Assembly: GCA_048940445.1 (NCBI GenBank)
Contig: JBHLON010000067.1
Location: 1-11,454, forward strand
Direction: 5' to 3'
DNA length: 11,454 nt
DNA from: Promethearchaeota archaeon
GTDB taxonomy: Archaea > Asgardarchaeota > Lokiarchaeia > Sigyniarchaeales > SOKP01
This document shows positions 1 through 11,454 of this stretch, in pieces (positions within the stretch are counted from its first letter, which is position 1; every line of letters begins with the position of its first letter). The notes under the pieces are model-generated. The model made no database searches, had not been told where the DNA came from, and worked only from the letters and a program-made list of their open reading frames with translations. The position numbers and the translations under genes are program-made.

Positions 1-1323
1 TTTATCTCTTGGCTTTGTAGCTTTTCCATATACCCTTTTTTCAAACTTAAGATAAAATATTGGAGATTTTCTATTTCCTATTTTAGTTAAATATCCTTCT
101 GTGAGTATAAAAAGATTCAATTTTTCTTGCAAATCTGCTTCACCAATGGTAATAATCTCTTTAGCTGTACGAGAACTTACTCTAACAAAATTTTCCTGTA
201 AGAAAGCTGAAACTGTAAAGTTTTCTGATTTTGCGAGGAGGTCCTGTAAATCTCCAATATTAGTAGATGAGGGATGTGGTTTAGCATATTTAGGTTGCCT
301 TGGAAAGGATGATACTAATCTTCGATAGATGAATTCTTCTCCATACGGATCAATGAAAATAAGTGTTACGTGGGGATTCATTAAAGCAGTTTCTTTTATA
401 TAAGTATCTACATAACCCCTAACATATTTAACATTTAAATAATTTAATTTGATGTACGTTCCATGAAGGAAAGGGCTATCAACTTCAGTAGGGTGAACCA
501 AATATTTTTTTTCATTTTTGGATGTTGTGAAAAATTCGGAAACCGAACCATAAATCATATCAGACGTTTTCGATACAGCAATGATTGGCTTTCCAGTAGT
601 ATTTTGGGCATCACTAAAGGCACTAGGAGCTCCAAATCCTTGACTTCCTCTAGTTTGTTTTAACTCAACGCTTTTTGAAGAGGCTAAATACTTTCCAAAT
701 TTTCGTAAATCAGCTTTACCCATACCTATTCCATTATCAAAGATTTCGAATGTATAATTCATTACATTCTTTTGACTTAATTCAGAAGTTAAGAAAGATG
801 GTGCTTCATATTCTCTTAAGCGGATTATCACAATTGGTTCAATATCTACAATATTTGTTACAGGTTTAATGATTTCATTCATGTCATCTACAATTTTTCT
901 AACTTCCTCTTCAACTTCCAGTTGAGCCTTATCAACAATTTCTCCTGATTTTTCTTCCTTATCATCAAGAAGATATTCACGCTCATTGGCTGCTTTTAAT
1001 TGGGAACCCTCTATTTCTTGCATTAATGCTTCTTTTGCCTCATTATTTAATGGTTGTATCTTTTCATCTTCTTCTATTTCCTGTACAATTGAGAGATTTT
1101 CTAGTGATAGTTCTTGATCTAACGAAAATTTGATTTTAGAGTTACCAGCATCCAATTCACTCCATTGAAATGTTTCAATTGCATCTAATGCATTATCTAA
1201 AAACTCAGCTGTATATTGTGTATGCTTCCAGTATCCAAATTCGAATCCAACTAATTGAGTTCGCTTACGCATAAATTGAGCAATTGTACCTTGCGTTATT
1301 CGACCATCCTCTTCAGAACTCAC
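1..1323 (-). CDS. top6B: DNA topoisomerase VI subunit B, 3'-truncated at window edge (441 codons in window), with a large acidic insertion
   Basis: Hand translation gives an open frame from GTG 1323 (alternative GTG 1335; in-frame TAA at 1339-1341) to base 1. It contains the GHKL motifs AEFLDNALDA (N-box), FDNGIGM (G1), KQTRGSQGFG (G2) and HGTYIKL (G3), the Top6B-typical ETALMNPHVTLIFIDPYG and AKPHP, and an H2TH start FLQENFVRVSSRTAKEII. Confidence 0.95.
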   Translation of the reverse strand, partial: MSSEEDGRITQGTIAQFMRKRTQLVGFEFGYWKHTQYTAEFLDNALDAIETFQWSELDAGNSKIKFSLDQELSLENLSIVQEIEEDEKIQPLNNEAKEALMQEIEGSQLKAANEREYLLDDKEEKSGEIVDKAQLEVEEEVRKIVDDMNEIIKPVTNIVDIEPIVIIRLREYEAPSFLTSELSQKNVMNYTFEIFDNGIGMGKADLRKFGKYLASSKSVELKQTRGSQGFGAPSAFSDAQNTTGKPIIAVSKTSDMIYGSVSEFFTTSKNEKKYLVHPTEVDSPFLHGTYIKLNYLNVKYVRGYVDTYIKETALMNPHVTLIFIDPYGEEFIYRRLVSSFPRQPKYAKPHPSSTNIGDLQDLLAKSENFTVSAFLQENFVRVSSRTAKEIITIGEADLQEKLNLFILTEGYLTKIGNRKSPIFYLKFEKRVYGKATKPRDK

Positions 1324-1331
1324 CTTTTCCT

Positions 1332-1338
1332 TCACCTT
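1332..1338 (-). promoter_or_regulatory. Shine-Dalgarno-like AAGGTGA upstream of top6B
   Basis: The minus strand reads AAAAGGTGAAGGAAAAG-GTG. AGGTGA matches the archaeal SD core (GGAGGTGA) and lies 8 nt before GTG 1323. Confidence 0.5.
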
Positions 1339-3780: not shown

Positions 3781-6153
3781 TTAAATAGATTGAAGTTCGG
3801 AAATGAGTAATGGTATATTTAGTTTTCTAGCAAATTTTTCGATCTTATTGAAAAGCTCTTGAGATATTATCTCTTTTTTTTCTAAATTCAGAATTTTCAC
3901 GAATTTTCTGCCATAATAGGTTTTTTTGAGATTTGAAATATTATATCGTATCGTACCTTCTTCAAATGATTTATATATTTTTGAAGTTTCTAATTCTTCT
4001 TTTCTTATTTTAACAATTTCATCGGAGTATTTCATAAACGAAGTATTTCTCATCTTCTTTAGATTAAATATATCAGTAGAACCTAATTCCTTTTTATTTA
4101 AGGATTTATTTATAAAAGAATGAATTTCATTTAACAATTCTATTTTAAACTTTTTAAGGGGAAGATCTTCCGACAATAATTTTTTAATTATTCTAGTATA
4201 TGGAATGTCTATGCCTGCCAATTCTGTCGTCAAATTTAATAACGCTAATATTTGATTAGTTCTCTCTTCTGGATTTAACTTTAACTGGTTAAAGGTATAT
4301 TCTCTTTCTTGATTTATGAAATTAAATAGAAATTTTCTGAAAGCTTTTATAAATTGATTATAATTTGGGATAAATGATTTATTAGGATTATTATATATTT
4401 CGTCATCTGCCTCGAAAGGTGTGATTTTTTTCTTTAGAACTAAACTTACTACAGATAAAGGGTAATAGCCTTCAATAAATTCCATACCTTTGGAGACACT
4501 ATTTATTGCATCTTTTATTGAGCATTTTGTTATAACATCTATCGTTTTAATAATATTGCCTTCTATTTTAACTGGATTTTTCTGGCAATAACATAGATCG
4601 AAAGGTTTTAAATCATGGAATAATGGATTGTTTTGATCGGGAATTATGACTTGGGATCCGTAGGCATTTACAATGTTAGTGTGTTGAGGCTTACTTGCTA
4701 AATCCCATTCAATTATGATTACATTATTAATATTTAAAAATGCTTGAAATGTATCATAACTATTATTAGTTGGTTTAGATATCAAGGAAAAAGAATCAGC
4801 AAGATTTATATTATAGTCTTCTTGTTCTCCCCAAAATTGATTTTTATAGTAAAAAACATCGGGAAAATTCGTTAGGTCATCAAGGAACAATTCATTCATA
4901 ATATGATAATTAATTCCAATTTCAGATGATTTAATATTGGAATCATCTAATCCATAGAAACCGATATGCTTTATTATATAATTATAAACAGGAATGCTAA
5001 AATTATCTTTATCATGACTTACAAGATAGGTGTTTCTCTTTTTTCTAAAATTAACATGCGCTTTTTTTATATGATGACGATCTATGAGATATTTTAAAAA
5101 TGCAAATTTCTTTAAATAAATTTTTCTCTTTAACTCTCTGATTTCAACCTTATATTTTTTATATGCGTCGATATAATCTGTTTTGGGAATATTAAATATT
5201 TCAAATTGATTTTTCATTAACTTGATCTTTTCTATTATAGAAAAACTTTCAATCTCAGTTAAAAAGTAGTCTAAAATCTCTCTTTTAAACGATTGTTGTT
5301 CTTCAAGTTTCACTGCTTCTTTAAAAGAAGGATTTAATGCGCTTAAAGTTTCAAAGTTCTTTATTATGAAAAAGTTTGAGAAGTATTTTTCATTAAAATC
5401 TTTAGATTTAGCCATTTCTAGAAGCTTGTCAATCAAAGACGTCAAAAAAGACGTATTCTTAAATTGATATACTTGAAGGATCCTATCAATAAATTCAATG
5501 ATTCGAAGTATATCATAAAAAGAATATAACGATACTGTTCTTAAAATAAGTTTATAGGCTTTTTCAATATAATTATTATATTTTACTAGATATTCAGCCA
5601 AACCATTTTCATAACAATTTTTAAGGAATTCAAATAATTCAATGAATAAATTATTTTCTAGTGCTATCTTAAGGAACTTCTCAATAATCGGTTCACATTC
5701 ATATTGATTAATAATTGCCTTGTTTAAATAATTTAAGCCTTCTACATAATTTTTATCCCCTAAACAAGAATTTGCTAAGTTTAAAAAATTATCACTTTTT
5801 TTTCTAGCACCGAAATCTTCAGAGGTTAAATTATATTTCTTTATATTATTTAAAATCTTTAAAGATAATCTTTCTTTTAAAATAAGTAGTATTTTTAATA
5901 AATGAATACATATTTTATCTTCTAATTGCGTATGTATCAAAAATGTAGGACAATCATGAAAGATCTCTAAATTTGTTTCATCTATAATTATATGGAATTC
6001 ACGATCCTCATCTGAAATAATAGCTTTTATAACAACTGGATCCTCATCTAACTGAATTATAGTTATTTTATTAATTGGAAATTCAGATGATTTTTTGTAT
6101 AAATTTAATCCAAATTTACTTATTACCAATTCGGACAAAGACTTGTTATCCAT
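3781..6153 (-). CDS. SWIM zinc-finger-like protein with TPR-like/helical region and uncharacterised C-terminal domains (790 aa)
   Basis: An N-terminal beta-rich segment leads to H66-D-C68-x13-C82-I-H84-LLKILL (SWIM consensus CxC-xn-CxH). A TPR-like unit follows (FLNLANSCLGDKNYVEGLNYLNKAI). The start is 4 nt after the vWA gene stop. Confidence 0.7.
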   Translation of the reverse strand: MDNKSLSELVISKFGLNLYKKSSEFPINKITIIQLDEDPVVIKAIISDEDREFHIIIDETNLEIFHDCPTFLIHTQLEDKICIHLLKILLILKERLSLKILNNIKKYNLTSEDFGARKKSDNFLNLANSCLGDKNYVEGLNYLNKAIINQYECEPIIEKFLKIALENNLFIELFEFLKNCYENGLAEYLVKYNNYIEKAYKLILRTVSLYSFYDILRIIEFIDRILQVYQFKNTSFLTSLIDKLLEMAKSKDFNEKYFSNFFIIKNFETLSALNPSFKEAVKLEEQQSFKREILDYFLTEIESFSIIEKIKLMKNQFEIFNIPKTDYIDAYKKYKVEIRELKRKIYLKKFAFLKYLIDRHHIKKAHVNFRKKRNTYLVSHDKDNFSIPVYNYIIKHIGFYGLDDSNIKSSEIGINYHIMNELFLDDLTNFPDVFYYKNQFWGEQEDYNINLADSFSLISKPTNNSYDTFQAFLNINNVIIIEWDLASKPQHTNIVNAYGSQVIIPDQNNPLFHDLKPFDLCYCQKNPVKIEGNIIKTIDVITKCSIKDAINSVSKGMEFIEGYYPLSVVSLVLKKKITPFEADDEIYNNPNKSFIPNYNQFIKAFRKFLFNFINQEREYTFNQLKLNPEERTNQILALLNLTTELAGIDIPYTRIIKKLLSEDLPLKKFKIELLNEIHSFINKSLNKKELGSTDIFNLKKMRNTSFMKYSDEIVKIRKEELETSKIYKSFEEGTIRYNISNLKKTYYGRKFVKILNLEKKEIISQELFNKIEKFARKLNIPLLISELQSI

Positions 6154-6157
6154 AATT

Positions 6158-8659
6158 TTAAAATCTTGACTTAATAATTTCAGATATCAATTTGGGAAAT
6201 TCATTCCAATCTTTTATGGTAAGAAGCTGCCCTCCAGCTACTTTAACCATTTTCTTAGCATCTTTTAAGCTATATGAAGTTTCAGGACAAATCAAAATAA
6301 AGTCTACTCCCAAAGAACGCATTATTCTAATCTCTTCAATTCCATCACGAAGATCGAATATTTCTGCATCTGTAAATAACACATTTAATTTTTCACGAGA
6401 ACTTGAATATTCTTTAAACTGCTTATTAGCCCATTTGAGAGCACTCTGAATTCTTGTCCCTCCTCTCGCACTAACAGAAAGCAATTCATCAGCTAGTTGT
6501 TCTAAATCAACTTTTTCATTCAATTCCTTTAAAACATGAGTATCTGATTCAAAAAAAGTTACTCCAAATTCATCTTTACGCATACCATAACATAGCATAG
6601 TTACACAAATAGTCATATAAGCTAGTTTATCTCCTGACATTGAGCCACTAATATCTAATTCAAAACAACAAGATCGAAGTCCCTTTGCAGTCTCAAAAAC
6701 ATAAAAGTCATCATAATTTATGTGATCTAATTCCTTTCCTTTTTCTAATAGATTAAAAATAGTTTCTTCTAAATCTATATTTTCAAAGTCATCTCCGATA
6801 GTATATGGTCTTACTATGTTAATTGGGATAGGTCCGGTCGTAGCAGACCCTAAGCGAGCTCTAGAATAATATATACCTAACTCCACTAGTATTTTTTTTG
6901 CCAACTCTTTAACTTTCTGTCTTGTATGTTCTGGTAAAGTTTTACGGTGAATAAACCATTGTTTGAGTAAATTCTCGCCACTGCCAGCCGACAAACACGA
7001 AATAGTTTTTTCTTGTCCTTCTTTTCCTCCAATTTGCTGTGCTGCTTTCAAAGTTTCGCCTAAATTAAAATGACCTAAAGCAGCTAATGCTTCTCTATTA
7101 TCATTAGCTAAGGCACTACTGATTAATTCTTTAACCCGATCATAATTCAATTGATCTTTTACCTGATTGATTAAATTTGAGATTCTTTGAAAATCTCCGA
7201 TCTTTTTATCAATCATCTTTTTTAATAATTGATAGTTAGGTTCAATTAATTCAAAAATCTCTTCATCAGACATATTGAGTTTTTTTCCAATATCTTTAAT
7301 CATATCTGACTCTGGGTTCAAACCAATTTTTCTAAAAAATTCAAGAGCATTTCTAAGTTGTTCTGGAGTTTCACAAACTTCTAAAGTTTGTTTCATTAGG
7401 TTAGGGATTTGTTGAGCCATTTTTTGACTACAATGGATATTTGCACAACTATTCGCTAATTGTTGTAGGTGATGAGTTAGTGATTTAAATGCTTCAGGTT
7501 TTACTTTTTGTTTCATTGCATCTTCGATCGCGTTTTGAAGTGATTGATTAAATAGGTCATTCCATGATTTATCTGCAAATGCATTTTTAGTCAAACTTTC
7601 AAGAGATAAATTATTTTTGGAATTATGAAATTGCTCTTGAATTTTCTTTAACAGTTCCATTCGTATATTTGTTCCAAAATATTGATCTAAGGAGTTAGCT
7701 AGATTAAAATTATACTCAAAAGAAGAACTTTTTAATGAATTATTCATTACTTTTTGAAGATCAAATTGCGGAGTTTCCCCCAGTGTTTTTGCAGCATTAA
7801 ATAGTTGGTCTAAATTTGTGATTTGATTATGAAGTTGATTTTTAATATCTTTCAATTGATTTTTTATTTTGTTACTTTCAATAGTTTCATCTAAATATTT
7901 CATTGTTTGCAAAAGATCATTAACTTTGTTGTTTTTGATTAAGTCTTCTAACTCAGAAGTAATATCTTGATTTTCAAGCGCCTTAGCAGTAATTTTTTCC
8001 CATTCGCGAAGAGATTTCGATTGTATTAATTCATTTAAACCCAATTTAACTCCTGCTTCTATGTCATCTGGTTCTAATGAGTTAATTTTTTGTTCTAAAC
8101 GATCTTTTGCTTCTTCAATTAATTTTTCTAGTGATGAAATCTCCTCTTTATATAACTCAGAATCTTCGTTAAAAAAGTGCAATGCTGATTTATATGGTTC
8201 TTCTTCTCGTTTTTGATTCAAATCATTAAAAAATTCTTCTAATTCTAGAATTGATTCTTGATCAATCGATTTTGAAAATTCTATTTCATCTATTTCATCT
8301 TGAATTTGATCTAATTCTGATCTAATTTCACCAGAAACAATCTCATCATTAAATTCTTCTTTTGGTTCTTCATCACTAGGAAAAAATGACCCGAGCATAT
8401 CCTTCTTATAATTAGGAAAGAGGATTTCAAAAGCAATTTCCTTTGCTAGTTGTTGATTATCAGGAAAAGAGGTAACAGTGCTGATTTCTATATAATCATT
8501 TGGAGTCACTTTCCCAATTCTATAATATCGCGATAAAATTAATCTCGGAATTGAAAGAACTTGTCGTGAAGATGGAATTTGTACTATATCTGGATGACTT
8601 CTCATCTTTCTAATAAAATCAACGGCAAATTCACAGGGATTTTCTGGAAACACATGCAT
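6158..8659 (-). CDS. vWA (MIDAS) domain protein, MoxR partner: N-terminal AAA+-lid-like domain, long helical middle, C-terminal vWA
   Basis: Complete MIDAS motif: DISGS (DxSxS, D669), GGT and LFTD. It is preceded by VRPYTIGDDFENIDLEETI, which resembles the pre-vWA segment of DUF58/CoxE/chelatase-D-type proteins. The gene lies directly downstream of a MoxR ATPase. Confidence 0.9.
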   Translation of the reverse strand: MHVFPENPCEFAVDFIRKMRSHPDIVQIPSSRQVLSIPRLILSRYYRIGKVTPNDYIEISTVTSFPDNQQLAKEIAFEILFPNYKKDMLGSFFPSDEEPKEEFNDEIVSGEIRSELDQIQDEIDEIEFSKSIDQESILELEEFFNDLNQKREEEPYKSALHFFNEDSELYKEEISSLEKLIEEAKDRLEQKINSLEPDDIEAGVKLGLNELIQSKSLREWEKITAKALENQDITSELEDLIKNNKVNDLLQTMKYLDETIESNKIKNQLKDIKNQLHNQITNLDQLFNAAKTLGETPQFDLQKVMNNSLKSSSFEYNFNLANSLDQYFGTNIRMELLKKIQEQFHNSKNNLSLESLTKNAFADKSWNDLFNQSLQNAIEDAMKQKVKPEAFKSLTHHLQQLANSCANIHCSQKMAQQIPNLMKQTLEVCETPEQLRNALEFFRKIGLNPESDMIKDIGKKLNMSDEEIFELIEPNYQLLKKMIDKKIGDFQRISNLINQVKDQLNYDRVKELISSALANDNREALAALGHFNLGETLKAAQQIGGKEGQEKTISCLSAGSGENLLKQWFIHRKTLPEHTRQKVKELAKKILVELGIYYSRARLGSATTGPIPINIVRPYTIGDDFENIDLEETIFNLLEKGKELDHINYDDFYVFETAKGLRSCCFELDISGSMSGDKLAYMTICVTMLCYGMRKDEFGVTFFESDTHVLKELNEKVDLEQLADELLSVSARGGTRIQSALKWANKQFKEYSSSREKLNVLFTDAEIFDLRDGIEEIRIMRSLGVDFILICPETSYSLKDAKKMVKVAGGQLLTIKDWNEFPKLISEIIKSRF

Positions 8660-8670
8660 TAAGAAATGAT

Positions 8671-8676
8671 CCTCCT
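8671..8676 (-). promoter_or_regulatory. Shine-Dalgarno AGGAGG overlapping the MoxR stop codon
   Basis: The minus strand reads GCA-TAG-GAGGATCATTTCTTA-ATG. AGGAGG overlaps the TAG and lies 11 nt before the vWA start, consistent with translational coupling. Confidence 0.6.
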
Positions 8677-9616
8677 ATGCTCCTAATGTTTTATGAATAA
8701 CATTATCAATAATAGTTTCAACCCTTATACCTGGTTTTGGCTTAATACTTCCTAATAATACATATTTTGAGATTTCAGAAAGGTATTCATAAACAGAAGC
8801 ACTTTCTCCAATTTTTCCTTCTCTTTCAAGGAAACGCCTTCTAGCTAACATCTTAGCAATAGCGATTCCAGCTCTAATTGATGCTGGAACTTCAATATCA
8901 ATCTTATTTCTCCTAGTTTCATCAATTATTGAATAAATTAATTCTAATTCCGATTCTTCAATAGTAAAATGCTCTGGAAGATTAATTCGTATAATATCTA
9001 ATTCAGTAGTTTTATCTGGATATGTTAATTTTATCCAGACCTTGATTCTGTCTTTTAGAGCTTCTGAAAGACGATGAGTTCCAGATAGTTCTTCTGGATT
9101 CATGGCAGAAATAAAGAAGAAATCATCATCGGCTTTAATCCGCCCTAAGTGTGGAATACCTATTGAAGCTTCTTCTAAAGGCTCTAAAAGCGTGTTTTGT
9201 GAATATTCTGTAGCACGGTTAATTTCATTAGCTAAAAATGTGCCTCCTTCTAACATCGCACTGAGTAATGGACCTGGATTAAATGCTTCAAGAACAAAAC
9301 CTTTTTTTAAAGTTATGGCAGGATCAAAAGACCCTATAAAATGAGAAGGTTTTATACTTTCATCCATAGTCATCCAATAAAAACTCCTATTTTTATTCTC
9401 TTTAGCTCTTAGACTCGCGAAATATCTACACAAAATAGTTTTTCCAACTCCTGGTGGGCCAACTAAGGCAGGAAATAAACCAGTGGCCTCTGCATCTCTT
9501 AATAGTTCCAAGGCTTTTCCATATTGTCCAGACAAGACGATATTAATACTTTCTTCAGTAATATCTTTGATAAGATGTTGACTAAATAGTTGCTCAAAAT
9601 TTTCTTTATTAATCAT
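8675..9616 (-). CDS. MoxR-family (CbbQ/NorQ/GvpN-like, AAA_5) AAA+ ATPase
   Basis: Walker A GPPGVGKT, helix-2 insert ending FNPGPLLSAM, Walker B variant FLANEINRA, QNTLLEPLEE, pre-sensor-1 hairpin, sensor 1 SAMNP, Arg finger LSEALKDR, and a lid with sensor 2 ASIR. Confidence 0.93.
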   Translation of the reverse strand: MINKENFEQLFSQHLIKDITEESINIVLSGQYGKALELLRDAEATGLFPALVGPPGVGKTILCRYFASLRAKENKNRSFYWMTMDESIKPSHFIGSFDPAITLKKGFVLEAFNPGPLLSAMLEGGTFLANEINRATEYSQNTLLEPLEEASIGIPHLGRIKADDDFFFISAMNPEELSGTHRLSEALKDRIKVWIKLTYPDKTTELDIIRINLPEHFTIEESELELIYSIIDETRRNKIDIEVPASIRAGIAIAKMLARRRFLEREGKIGESASVYEYLSEISKYVLLGSIKPKPGIRVETIIDNVIHKTLGA

Positions 9617-9891
9617 ACCAATTTCTCAAATGAATCATAGAGATAAATATCTATTCCTTTATGAGAATATTAAATTAATGATAACTTAAAATTTTAAACC
9701 TAATATTTTAAAAAAATCATTAATCTAAAAGGAAATTAAGACAATGCCTTTAAGAATTTTTATTTAATTATATACCCATTATTTTAAATAATATTTTGTG
9801 TCTAATAATTTGTGAAAATAATAGAGATAAACAATTATATTGTTTTAAATGATTTATTGTAATAAGCGATTAAAAAAGGTAATTAAAAGAT
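9617..9891. promoter_or_regulatory. Divergent promoter region between the MoxR operon and the methyltransferase
   Basis: A 275-nt, very AT-rich non-coding gap between head-to-head genes. Several TATA-like hexamers are present, but none can be singled out. Confidence 0.5.
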
Positions 9892-10827
9892 TTGACTAAT
9901 AATAATAATTCACAGAAATCATTAATTGGATTTTTTGAAACGAAAAATCAACTAGAAGTGTATCTCTCATCAAAAAGGTATGAAAATAAAAAAAATAAAG
10001 CTATAATAGGAAACCCGCATCCTTTTTTAAAGTGGGCGGGAGGAAAAAGACAATTAATTCGTCAATTAAATAAATATATACCTGATAATTATAATCGTTA
10101 TATTGAACCTTTTGTTGGAGGAGGTGCATTATTTTTCTATCTTTTGCCTTCAAAAGCCATTTTAATTGATAGTAATTTTGAACTGGTTAATTGTTTTAAG
10201 GTTATAAAAGATAATGTTGAGGATTTAATAATATCATTGAAAAAACACAAATATGAAAAAGATTATTATTATAAAATCCGTGCAATGGATAGGAATATAC
10301 AAGTTTATTCAAATTTATCAAATAATGAAAGAGCTTCAAGGACAATCTATTTGAATAAGACAGGATTTAATGGGTTATATCGTGTTAATAGTAAAGGTTT
10401 CTTTAATGTGCCATTTGGTAGACATAAGAACCCAACTATCTGTGATGAAGATAATTTAAGAGCTGTTAATAAGGTTTTAAAGAATGTGAAAATAGTGCAT
10501 GGATCTTTTGAAATGTGTTTAGAATTTGCTGAGAAAAATGATTTTATTTATTTAGACCCTCCATATTATCCCATCTCTGAAACAGCATTGTTTACCAGTT
10601 ATACAAAACAGGATTTTGGAAAAGATTCTCAGCTAAATTTATTCGAAATTTTTAAAAAGTTAGATCAAATGGGATGTATGTTATTATTAAGTAATTCTTA
10701 TTGTGATTTTATATTAGATTTGTATAAGGATTATAAGATTATCAAAATGAAAGCCAAAAGAGCCATAAATTCTGTTTCATCTAAACGGGGTCAGATAAAT
10801 GAAGTATTAGTTACTAATTTCTCATAA
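9892..10827 (+). CDS. dam: Dam/DpnM-family (D12 class) DNA N6-adenine methyltransferase, apparently orphan, with N-terminal extension
   Basis: Motifs PFLKWAGGKRQL, YIEPFVGGGALFF (motif I), YLNKTGFNGLYRVNSKGFFNVPFG (Dam-type target recognition), FIYLDPPY (motif IV), LLSNS and EVLVTN. The TTG start is preceded by AAGGTAA, with an in-frame TAA at 9880-9882. Confidence 0.93.
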   Translation: MTNNNNSQKSLIGFFETKNQLEVYLSSKRYENKKNKAIIGNPHPFLKWAGGKRQLIRQLNKYIPDNYNRYIEPFVGGGALFFYLLPSKAILIDSNFELVNCFKVIKDNVEDLIISLKKHKYEKDYYYKIRAMDRNIQVYSNLSNNERASRTIYLNKTGFNGLYRVNSKGFFNVPFGRHKNPTICDEDNLRAVNKVLKNVKIVHGSFEMCLEFAEKNDFIYLDPPYYPISETALFTSYTKQDFGKDSQLNLFEIFKKLDQMGCMLLLSNSYCDFILDLYKDYKIIKMKAKRAINSVSSKRGQINEVLVTNFS

Positions 10828-10906: not shown

Positions 10907-11454
10907 ATGTCTTTTGAGTGGTTAAAGATGCAATTAGAGCAATCATATCCCAATGCATATGATTATAGAATCACTAAGATGAAAAATAAAGTAATTACCG
11001 TACCACATGAATTATGTATTGAAAGGGCAAAACTCTTTACAGAATCATATAAAAAAACTAAAGGAGAACCATCGGTAATTCGTTTTGCGAAAGCTTTAAA
11101 TTACTTTTTGTCTAACATGACAATTAAAATTTGGGATGATGAATTTATCGTTGGAAATCGATGTACTAAATTTGTGGGAACTCCATTATATCCAGAGGTA
11201 CGAGTGGATACAATTGAGTTAGATTTGGATCTATACAGCACACGTGATGTTCAAAAATTCCTAATTTCTGATATAGACAAAGAATTTTTAAAAAATGAAA
11301 TCATTCCGTACTGGAAAATTGAGGAGGATACAGTAAAATCGAGATTTGATTCGTATTTGAGTCCTGATCTATTTGATCTAATGTTAATGATGATCTATAT
11401 TGTAGATGTTAATATTACAAATGGAGTTGGACATTTTTTTCCCGGTCATGAGAA
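10907..11454 (+). CDS. Glycyl-radical enzyme (PFL2 / dehydratase-like branch of the pyruvate formate-lyase superfamily), 3'-truncated
   Basis: Hand translation from ATG 10907 (alternative ATG 10928) is open to the edge: LCIERAKLFTESYKKTKGEPSVIRFAKAL, IKIWDDEFIVGNR, PLYPEV, EIIPYWK, GVGHFFPGHE. This is the characteristic GRE N-terminal pattern. The catalytic Cys and Gly loops lie outside the window. Confidence 0.9.
   Translation, partial: MSFEWLKMQLEQSYPNAYDYRITKMKNKVITVPHELCIERAKLFTESYKKTKGEPSVIRFAKALNYFLSNMTIKIWDDEFIVGNRCTKFVGTPLYPEVRVDTIELDLDLYSTRDVQKFLISDIDKEFLKNEIIPYWKIEEDTVKSRFDSYLSPDLFDLMLMMIYIVDVNITNGVGHFFPGHE

Follow-up and report, generated by a model that had tools for sequence, protein, structure and literature searches.

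The window analysed here is the whole 11,454-nucleotide stretch of contig JBHLON010000067.1 from a Promethearchaeota archaeon. It carries a gene of the dam/dpnM family of N6-adenine DNA methyltransferases, the product of which begins with an extension that holds a peptide resembling the PCNA-interacting (PIP) box. The features of the locus are as follows:

6158-8659, minus strand: vWA gene, alongside the MoxR gene (Pfam)
8675-9616, minus strand: MoxR-type AAA ATPase, the divergent neighbour (Pfam); a conserved neighbour, not a restriction enzyme
9844-9849, plus strand: TTTAAA, a possible TATA box (weak, read from the sequence)
9877-9880, plus strand: AGGT, a putative SD-like element located 11 nt 5' of the TTG (read from the sequence)
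9892-9894, plus strand: TTG start codon, with the Q of the motif 7 codons downstream; invariant in 12 of 12 aligned loci
9892-10827, plus strand: gene for a 311-aa N6-adenine DNA methyltransferase of the dam/dpnM family, read from the TTG (PF02086, TIGR00571, DpnM 2dpm)
9913-9936, plus strand: PIP-like motif QKSLIGFF, residues 8-15, in a probably disordered N-terminus (sequence, conservation, PCNA model)
9943-10017, plus strand: Lokiarchaeia-specific basic helix (residues 18-35) and I-x-G-x-P connector (model, conservation)
10030-10032, plus strand: K47, equivalent of K9 in E. coli Dam (alignment; invariant)
10105-10128, plus strand: motif I, the SAM-binding loop EPFVGGGA (sequence, alignment, conservation)
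10366-10419, plus strand: recognition hairpin, residues 159-176, with L162, R164 and P174 aligned to L122, R124 and P134 of E. coli Dam
10555-10566, plus strand: catalytic motif IV, DPPY, D222-Y225 (sequence, conservation)
10907-11454, plus strand: PFL-like glycyl radical enzyme, the downstream gene, cut by the contig end (Pfam); a conserved neighbour

Throughout the genus, the methylase gene lies between the MoxR ATPase and the PFL-like enzyme. In the window, the MoxR ATPase, the vWA protein and a 790-aa protein form a co-oriented cluster (3781-9616, minus strand), which is divergent from the methylase. The 790-aa protein gave no Pfam match and contains a SWIM-like CxxF...CxH stretch. The other contig end cuts a gene at 1-1335 (minus strand) for a TopoVI-B-like GHKL ATPase, which carries a long acidic insertion.

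The family of the enzyme was determined by profile and structure searches. PF02086 matched from residue 48 (E 2e-65, 221 bits against a cut-off of 22) and TIGR00571 from residue 43 (295 bits, curated cut-off 114.85), which places the protein in the Dam/DpnM family. The score for PRK10904, the E. coli Dam equivalog, was 161 bits, below its cut-off of 441, and the enzyme is closer to DpnM. The same was seen with phmmer (E 7e-78 for DpnM and 1.5e-35 for E. coli Dam) and with Foldseek, where the best match of the modelled structure was DpnM (2dpm). E. coli Dam came next among the solved relatives. The named homologues are proteins of Promethearchaeota/Lokiarchaeota, which marks the host as a lokiarchaeon. 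K47, L162, R164, P174 and D222-Y225 are all intact and invariant across 43 homologues. We take K9 of E. coli Dam to act in GATC recognition, and the roles of L122, R124 and P134 are presumed in the same way. The Dam/DpnM family also includes members with specificities other than GATC. The intact motif I, DPPY and recognition residues point to an active GATC enzyme, and we regard its specificity for GATC as highly probable.

The catalytic domain begins at residue 43-48, so that about 42 residues precede it, close to the 40 given in the first-pass annotation of this DNA. That annotation also reported QKSLIGFF at residues 8-15, and these residues are an exact match to the PIP-box consensus Qxx[LIM]xx[FY][FY] (PMC4929162). 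In the single-chain AlphaFold model, residues 1-16 are unbound with pLDDT below 50; the motif thus stands in a predicted disordered terminal segment and is conserved there, as expected of a PIP client. The strict pattern was found 47 times in the 1.04 million residues of ORFs from the same genome, and within the first 30 residues in 4 of 3180 ORFs. At about 0.1% per protein, a single instance is suggestive, not decisive, and it is conservation that settles the matter. The TNNNNS leader, previously listed as a feature, is not conserved and is incidental. The stretch described there as a flexible basic linker belongs to the conserved helix 18-35, which is predicted with confidence (pLDDT 91-93 across residues 21-40). 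R29, N32, K36 and I38 of this region are strongly conserved. The helix and its connector are better conserved than the linker before them and are retained in several motif-less copies. The basic helix may add DNA affinity. Only about 3 residues separate it from the motif, a spacing that bears on the geometry of binding clamp and DNA at the same time and is a point against the proposed tether.

The presence of the motif in the protein depends on the start codon. Codon 1 is TTG in all 12 aligned motif-bearing loci, whereas the position of GTG 9958 is occupied by 7 different triplets among them. GTG 9958 was ruled out as the start because this codon position is not conserved. In 22 of 23 motif-bearing loci a start codon (TTG, GTG or ATG) lies 6-9 codons 5' of the Q, and in the remaining one it lies farther away; several of these loci offer no start codon at all from the motif up to the catalytic domain. 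The comparison therefore answers the caveat about the start codon and argues for initiation at TTG 9892. The AGGT element is similarly spaced in six close orthologues (loci L001-L007), which also have a similar T/A-rich block 5' of the gene, probably by chance given the AT-rich DNA. A scan with a sigma-70 promoter model, which is not suited to archaea, gave matches at chance level only.

The alignment of orthologues proposed in the first-pass annotation was decisive for the motif, which is kept in close orthologues while the flanking extension diverges. Across the 12 loci, Q8 and K9 do not vary, position 11 stays hydrophobic and position 14 aromatic; position 15 varies (F, I, L, V, M). Non-synonymous pair differences amounted to 19 per anchor codon and 44-46 in the flanks, so that positions 8, 9, 11 and 14 are constrained and residues 2-7 and 16-23 drift. 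A cause at the DNA level (promoter or SD) was ruled out by the tolerated synonymous change. Loki homologues provided 78 distinct long extensions, and 53 of these contain Qxx[LIMF]xx[FY], compared with a mean of 2.2 and a maximum of 7 in 500 shuffles, a comparison of related rows that is not to be read as a p-value.

The motif is not universal in Lokiarchaeia. It is clear in 23 of 71 Loki genome loci and not clear in the other 48, one of which is cut by a contig end; the closed genomes G044, G050 and G055 are three without a clear motif. Judged from its absence in about two thirds of the loci, the motif is dispensable. It disappears either by shortening of the extension or by erosion, and in one clade the extension is still there but the motif has eroded. 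Some motif-less loci may carry variants without Q, as such variants are also seen in PolB outside family f1 and in the RNase HII of the host. In a quick, midpoint-rooted tree built from the catalytic domains alone, the Lokiarchaeia copies all fall into a single clade (SH-aLRT 100), over the deep branches of which the motif is scattered (families f1, f4 and f6). This pattern fits an ancestral motif that would have been lost repeatedly. We propose that the gene itself was vertically inherited. Of 41 genomes in the host genus, 30 have it, as do about 45% of the class genomes searched, which indicates a useful rather than essential gene; it was not found in several class genomes of 100% completeness.

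Outside Lokiarchaeia, the homologues of Heimdallarchaeaceae type carry an N-terminal motif 28 residues before WxGGK in 18 of the 19 best hits. In the Thorarchaeia homologues, the motif forms the last residues of the protein (e.g., QTRIDEF and QTSLDEF). The genes of these two groups have a common downstream methylase neighbour, and hence related genes bear the peptide at opposite ends. A separate origin of the N-terminal motif in Loki and in Heimdall was considered and set aside, as a tree with a joint group was not rejected (p-AU 0.37); only the N- and C-terminal placements are clearly separate. The motif was found in none of 76 bacterial homologues, the one apparent match lying upstream of the likely start. 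Two copies of Hydrothermarchaeota type lack it in a barely sampled set of non-Asgard archaea, Micrarchaeota matches show only a partial C-terminal pattern, and some metagenomic matches of unassigned origin also contain the motif. In a second Thorarchaeia-associated clade (L103, L105, P0174-type), the tail is shortened to QQKLV/QQRLQF and resembles half of a clamp-binding motif.

One PCNA gene (C107:37470-38294) was found in the host genome, and its product was used for the complex modelling suggested earlier. Residues 1-42 of the methylase gave an ipSAE of 0.67, while the best control gave 0.02; among reference pairs, 58 of 80 solved complexes attained the mark applied, as did 2 of 110 mismatched ones. 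The runs share at least 87% of contacts, and the pLDDT of the partner was 57-59. In the model, residues 5-16 of the peptide contact PCNA at 41-48, 127-132, 235-237 and 253-260, and thus would occupy the canonical PIP pocket at the interdomain loop. The PIP-PCNA pair is a textbook one, so the model speaks for likeness and compatibility and not for binding as such. From conservation and modelling together, we consider it quite probable that the methylase binds PCNA via its N-terminal peptide. The three refuting conditions of the first-pass annotation, as far as computation could address them, all turned out in its favour, and its interpretation as a whole is supported in part.

Similar peptides are present in other proteins of the host. 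PolB begins with a basic extension holding QKSLFSFV, nearly the same peptide as QKSLIGFF of the methylase, and this peptide is kept in 13 of 14 genomes of family f1, the 14th being truncated by the end of its contig. In archaea, the PIP box of PolB is normally C-terminal. The N-terminal extension of the lokiarchaeal PolB (contig C48 of the host genome; L280-L299) is long, basic and of low complexity, and it contains Q[KT]SLxSF[VIM] in family f1 and versions without Q in other families; we infer that the PolB peptide binds PCNA. The DP2 subunit of PolD ends in QQKLSDFF and NreA in QKTIKDFL, and both PolD and NreA are PIP clients of PCNA (PMC4929162). RNase HII has a version without Q, and Fen1 is cut by a contig end, with its PIP region outside the assembled sequence. 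Further C-terminal PIP-like peptides of the host genome occur in an unannotated Cys-rich 350-aa protein (QKSLISFI; C71:7608-8657, plus strand), a DUF72 protein (C119:52193-52993, minus strand), an LRR protein (C62:36933-38591, plus strand) and a DinB-like polymerase (C72:7707-8786, minus strand). A second DNA methylase (PF01555; C73:31646-32197, minus strand) ends in PIP-like QIGLDNF. A distant second methylase of the D12 family (C96:52225-53280, plus strand) has an N-terminal extension of its own and no PIP match.

The first-pass annotation had called the enzyme an orphan Dam methyltransferase, and the searches, which covered known nuclease families, agree with this, since neither DpnII nor MutH gave a match in the host genome (93% complete) and the neighbours are the MoxR and PFL-like genes. 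Full-length DpnII was found in none of 151 class genomes. The DpnI search recovered no control and carries no weight for orphan status. An unannotated gene for a 300-aa protein (L101:2631-3539, plus strand, and homologues) was found in 14 of 161 Lokiarchaeia genomes and not in the host genome. In 11 genomes it adjoins the methylase, with an orientation that varies, and none of these 11 methylases has a clear PIP motif, although these kin are not independent. We rejected this patchy neighbour as a cognate nuclease: it gave no Pfam, PADLOC or PDB sequence match, no restriction nuclease stood at the top of the fold search, and the gene was not found in the host genome. The protein is predicted to consist of a winged helix and a ferredoxin-like domain, with T3 SAM lyase (6zm9) as the best and borderline match (Z 8.0, rmsd 3.3, 119 aligned), and a role as a SAM-linked regulator is possible. 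A distant homologue adjoins an N6/N4 methylase (L255). In five genomes of family f1 (L064, L069, L074, L075 and L077), an endonuclease III-type HhH-GPD glycosylase gene lies directly 3' of the methylase, often overlapping it.

Our best explanation overall, which we favour with modest confidence, is that an orphan GATC methylase binds PCNA and remethylates DNA near the replication fork. The disordered peptide would insert Q8, L11, F14 and F15 into the interdomain-loop pocket of host PCNA, where the similar peptides of replication and repair enzymes are expected to bind likewise. By docking transiently on PCNA left on new DNA, the enzyme would be enriched at the places where hemimethylated GATC sites arise, and this higher local concentration would make remethylation faster or more processive. 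The tether would be an accessory for efficiency rather than an essential part, which fits the repeated loss of the motif. The mark may protect against foreign GATC nucleases or regulate genes.

Binding to PCNA might instead serve remethylation after repair, or a general search for targets by sliding on chromatinised DNA. We hold this to be a less probable but serious alternative, as NreA and the DinB-like protein bear the same type of motif, the glycosylase gene follows the methylase directly in the five f1 genomes, and sequence cannot tell use at the fork from use in repair. The nearest match of the peptide is nevertheless on PolB, and replication yields far more hemimethylated sites than repair does. 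Besides PCNA, PIP-like motifs can have MutL-type proteins or other hubs as partners, and the host has a MutS-MutL pair. The variable position 15 would suit such a partner, or the enzyme's own surface, and the pass in the PCNA model may reflect likeness to solved PIP complexes. We consider this improbable because the Q, hydrophobic and aromatic positions give the exact PIP consensus and match PCNA clients of the same genome, and because the single-chain model leaves residues 1-16 unbound and of low confidence.

An orphan enzyme of the Dam family in a genome with MutS and MutL also brings to mind E. coli, where fork-coupled GATC methylation would serve methyl-directed mismatch repair or origin timing. 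The E. coli type combines MutH with a nuclease-less MutL, whereas the host genome has no MutH match and its MutL carries the endonuclease motif DQHA-x2-E of the MutH-independent type, which makes strand discrimination of this kind unlikely. Quick clamp-coupled remethylation would, moreover, shorten the strand signal. GATC sites are mildly avoided and unclustered (O/E 0.88), with no clusters or enrichment, which counts against an origin or regulatory role, and the gene is patchy. We therefore give this reading little credence. We find it hardly more plausible, if anything slightly less so, that the motif is untranslated, a chance match or a decaying relic. About 4 such N-terminal matches are expected per genome regardless of function and the motif was lost in many lineages, but the TTG is invariant and the motif codons are constrained across genera. 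Similar motifs also occur at other positions in other Asgard classes and are absent from bacterial homologues.

If binding of the methylase to PCNA holds, clamp-coupled DNA methylation of the kind known from mammalian DNMT1 has arisen convergently in Asgard archaea, with the clamp-binding end of the enzyme shifted from one terminus to the other between classes. A broader reading, which is speculative, is that Asgard archaea repeatedly and independently tethered methyltransferases to PCNA, so that replication-coupled maintenance of m6A could be read as a cell-cycle or chromatin mark. If true, the closest relatives of eukaryotes would possess a prokaryotic counterpart, in function, to the coupling of DNMT1 and PCNA. 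The system is cheap to work with: it needs two small recombinant proteins, and the natural orthologues without the motif are ready-made controls. The N-terminal PIP-like peptide of lokiarchaeal PolB is a useful by-product for rebuilding the Asgard replisome.

Both the enzyme family and the PIP mechanism are known; the literature searched yielded no description of the two together. M.DpnII (DpnM, 2dpm) and E. coli Dam (2g1p) have the fold, motif order, DPPY and GATC-recognition residues in common with the methylase. In contrast to them, it has the 42-residue N-terminal extension with the PIP-like motif and basic helix, and its genome lacks a DpnII or MutH match. The HG3 persistent orphan archaeal GATC methyltransferases are likewise Dam-like orphan m6A enzymes conserved within an archaeal taxon (PMC10609329). 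At about 45%, the methylase stays below the 75% persistence bar of that survey at class level; the survey includes one Asgard genome and, in the parts available to us, does not mention a clamp tether (PMC10609329).

Known archaeal PIP-box clients are PolB, PolD, RFC, Fen1, RNase HII, NucS, NreA and TIP, with no DNA methyltransferase among them (PMC4929162). They carry QxxhxxAA in a disordered terminal segment, as does the methylase, in which the N-terminal placement resembles the proposed TIP motif (PMC4929162) and host PolB. The first-pass annotation knew of no such case, and in the literature outside subscription papers we likewise found no description of a prokaryotic DNA methyltransferase as a direct sliding-clamp client. 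The nearest published hint is a putative adenine methyltransferase that co-purifies with P. abyssi NucS, alongside PCNA and RFC (PMC4929162).

The tether of mammalian DNMT1 to PCNA is transient, brings an approximately 2-fold gain in efficiency and is not strictly required (PMC1934996), which fits the patchy retention of the motif in Loki methylases. DNMT1 and the methylase have in common an N-terminal PIP box on a DNA methyltransferase, predicted in the case of the methylase. The enzymes themselves are not homologous: DNMT1 is a C5-cytosine methyltransferase and the methylase belongs to the N6-adenine Dam family. The C5-cytosine domain and the RFTS, CXXC and BAH domains of DNMT1 are absent from the methylase, in which only PF02086 was found and the structure of which matches the Dam family. 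The earlier term "DNMT1-like" thus suits only the predicted tether and not the descent of the enzyme; maintenance methylation of hemimethylated DNA is a putative role. The likeness to DNMT1-PCNA coupling is convergence, not ancestry.
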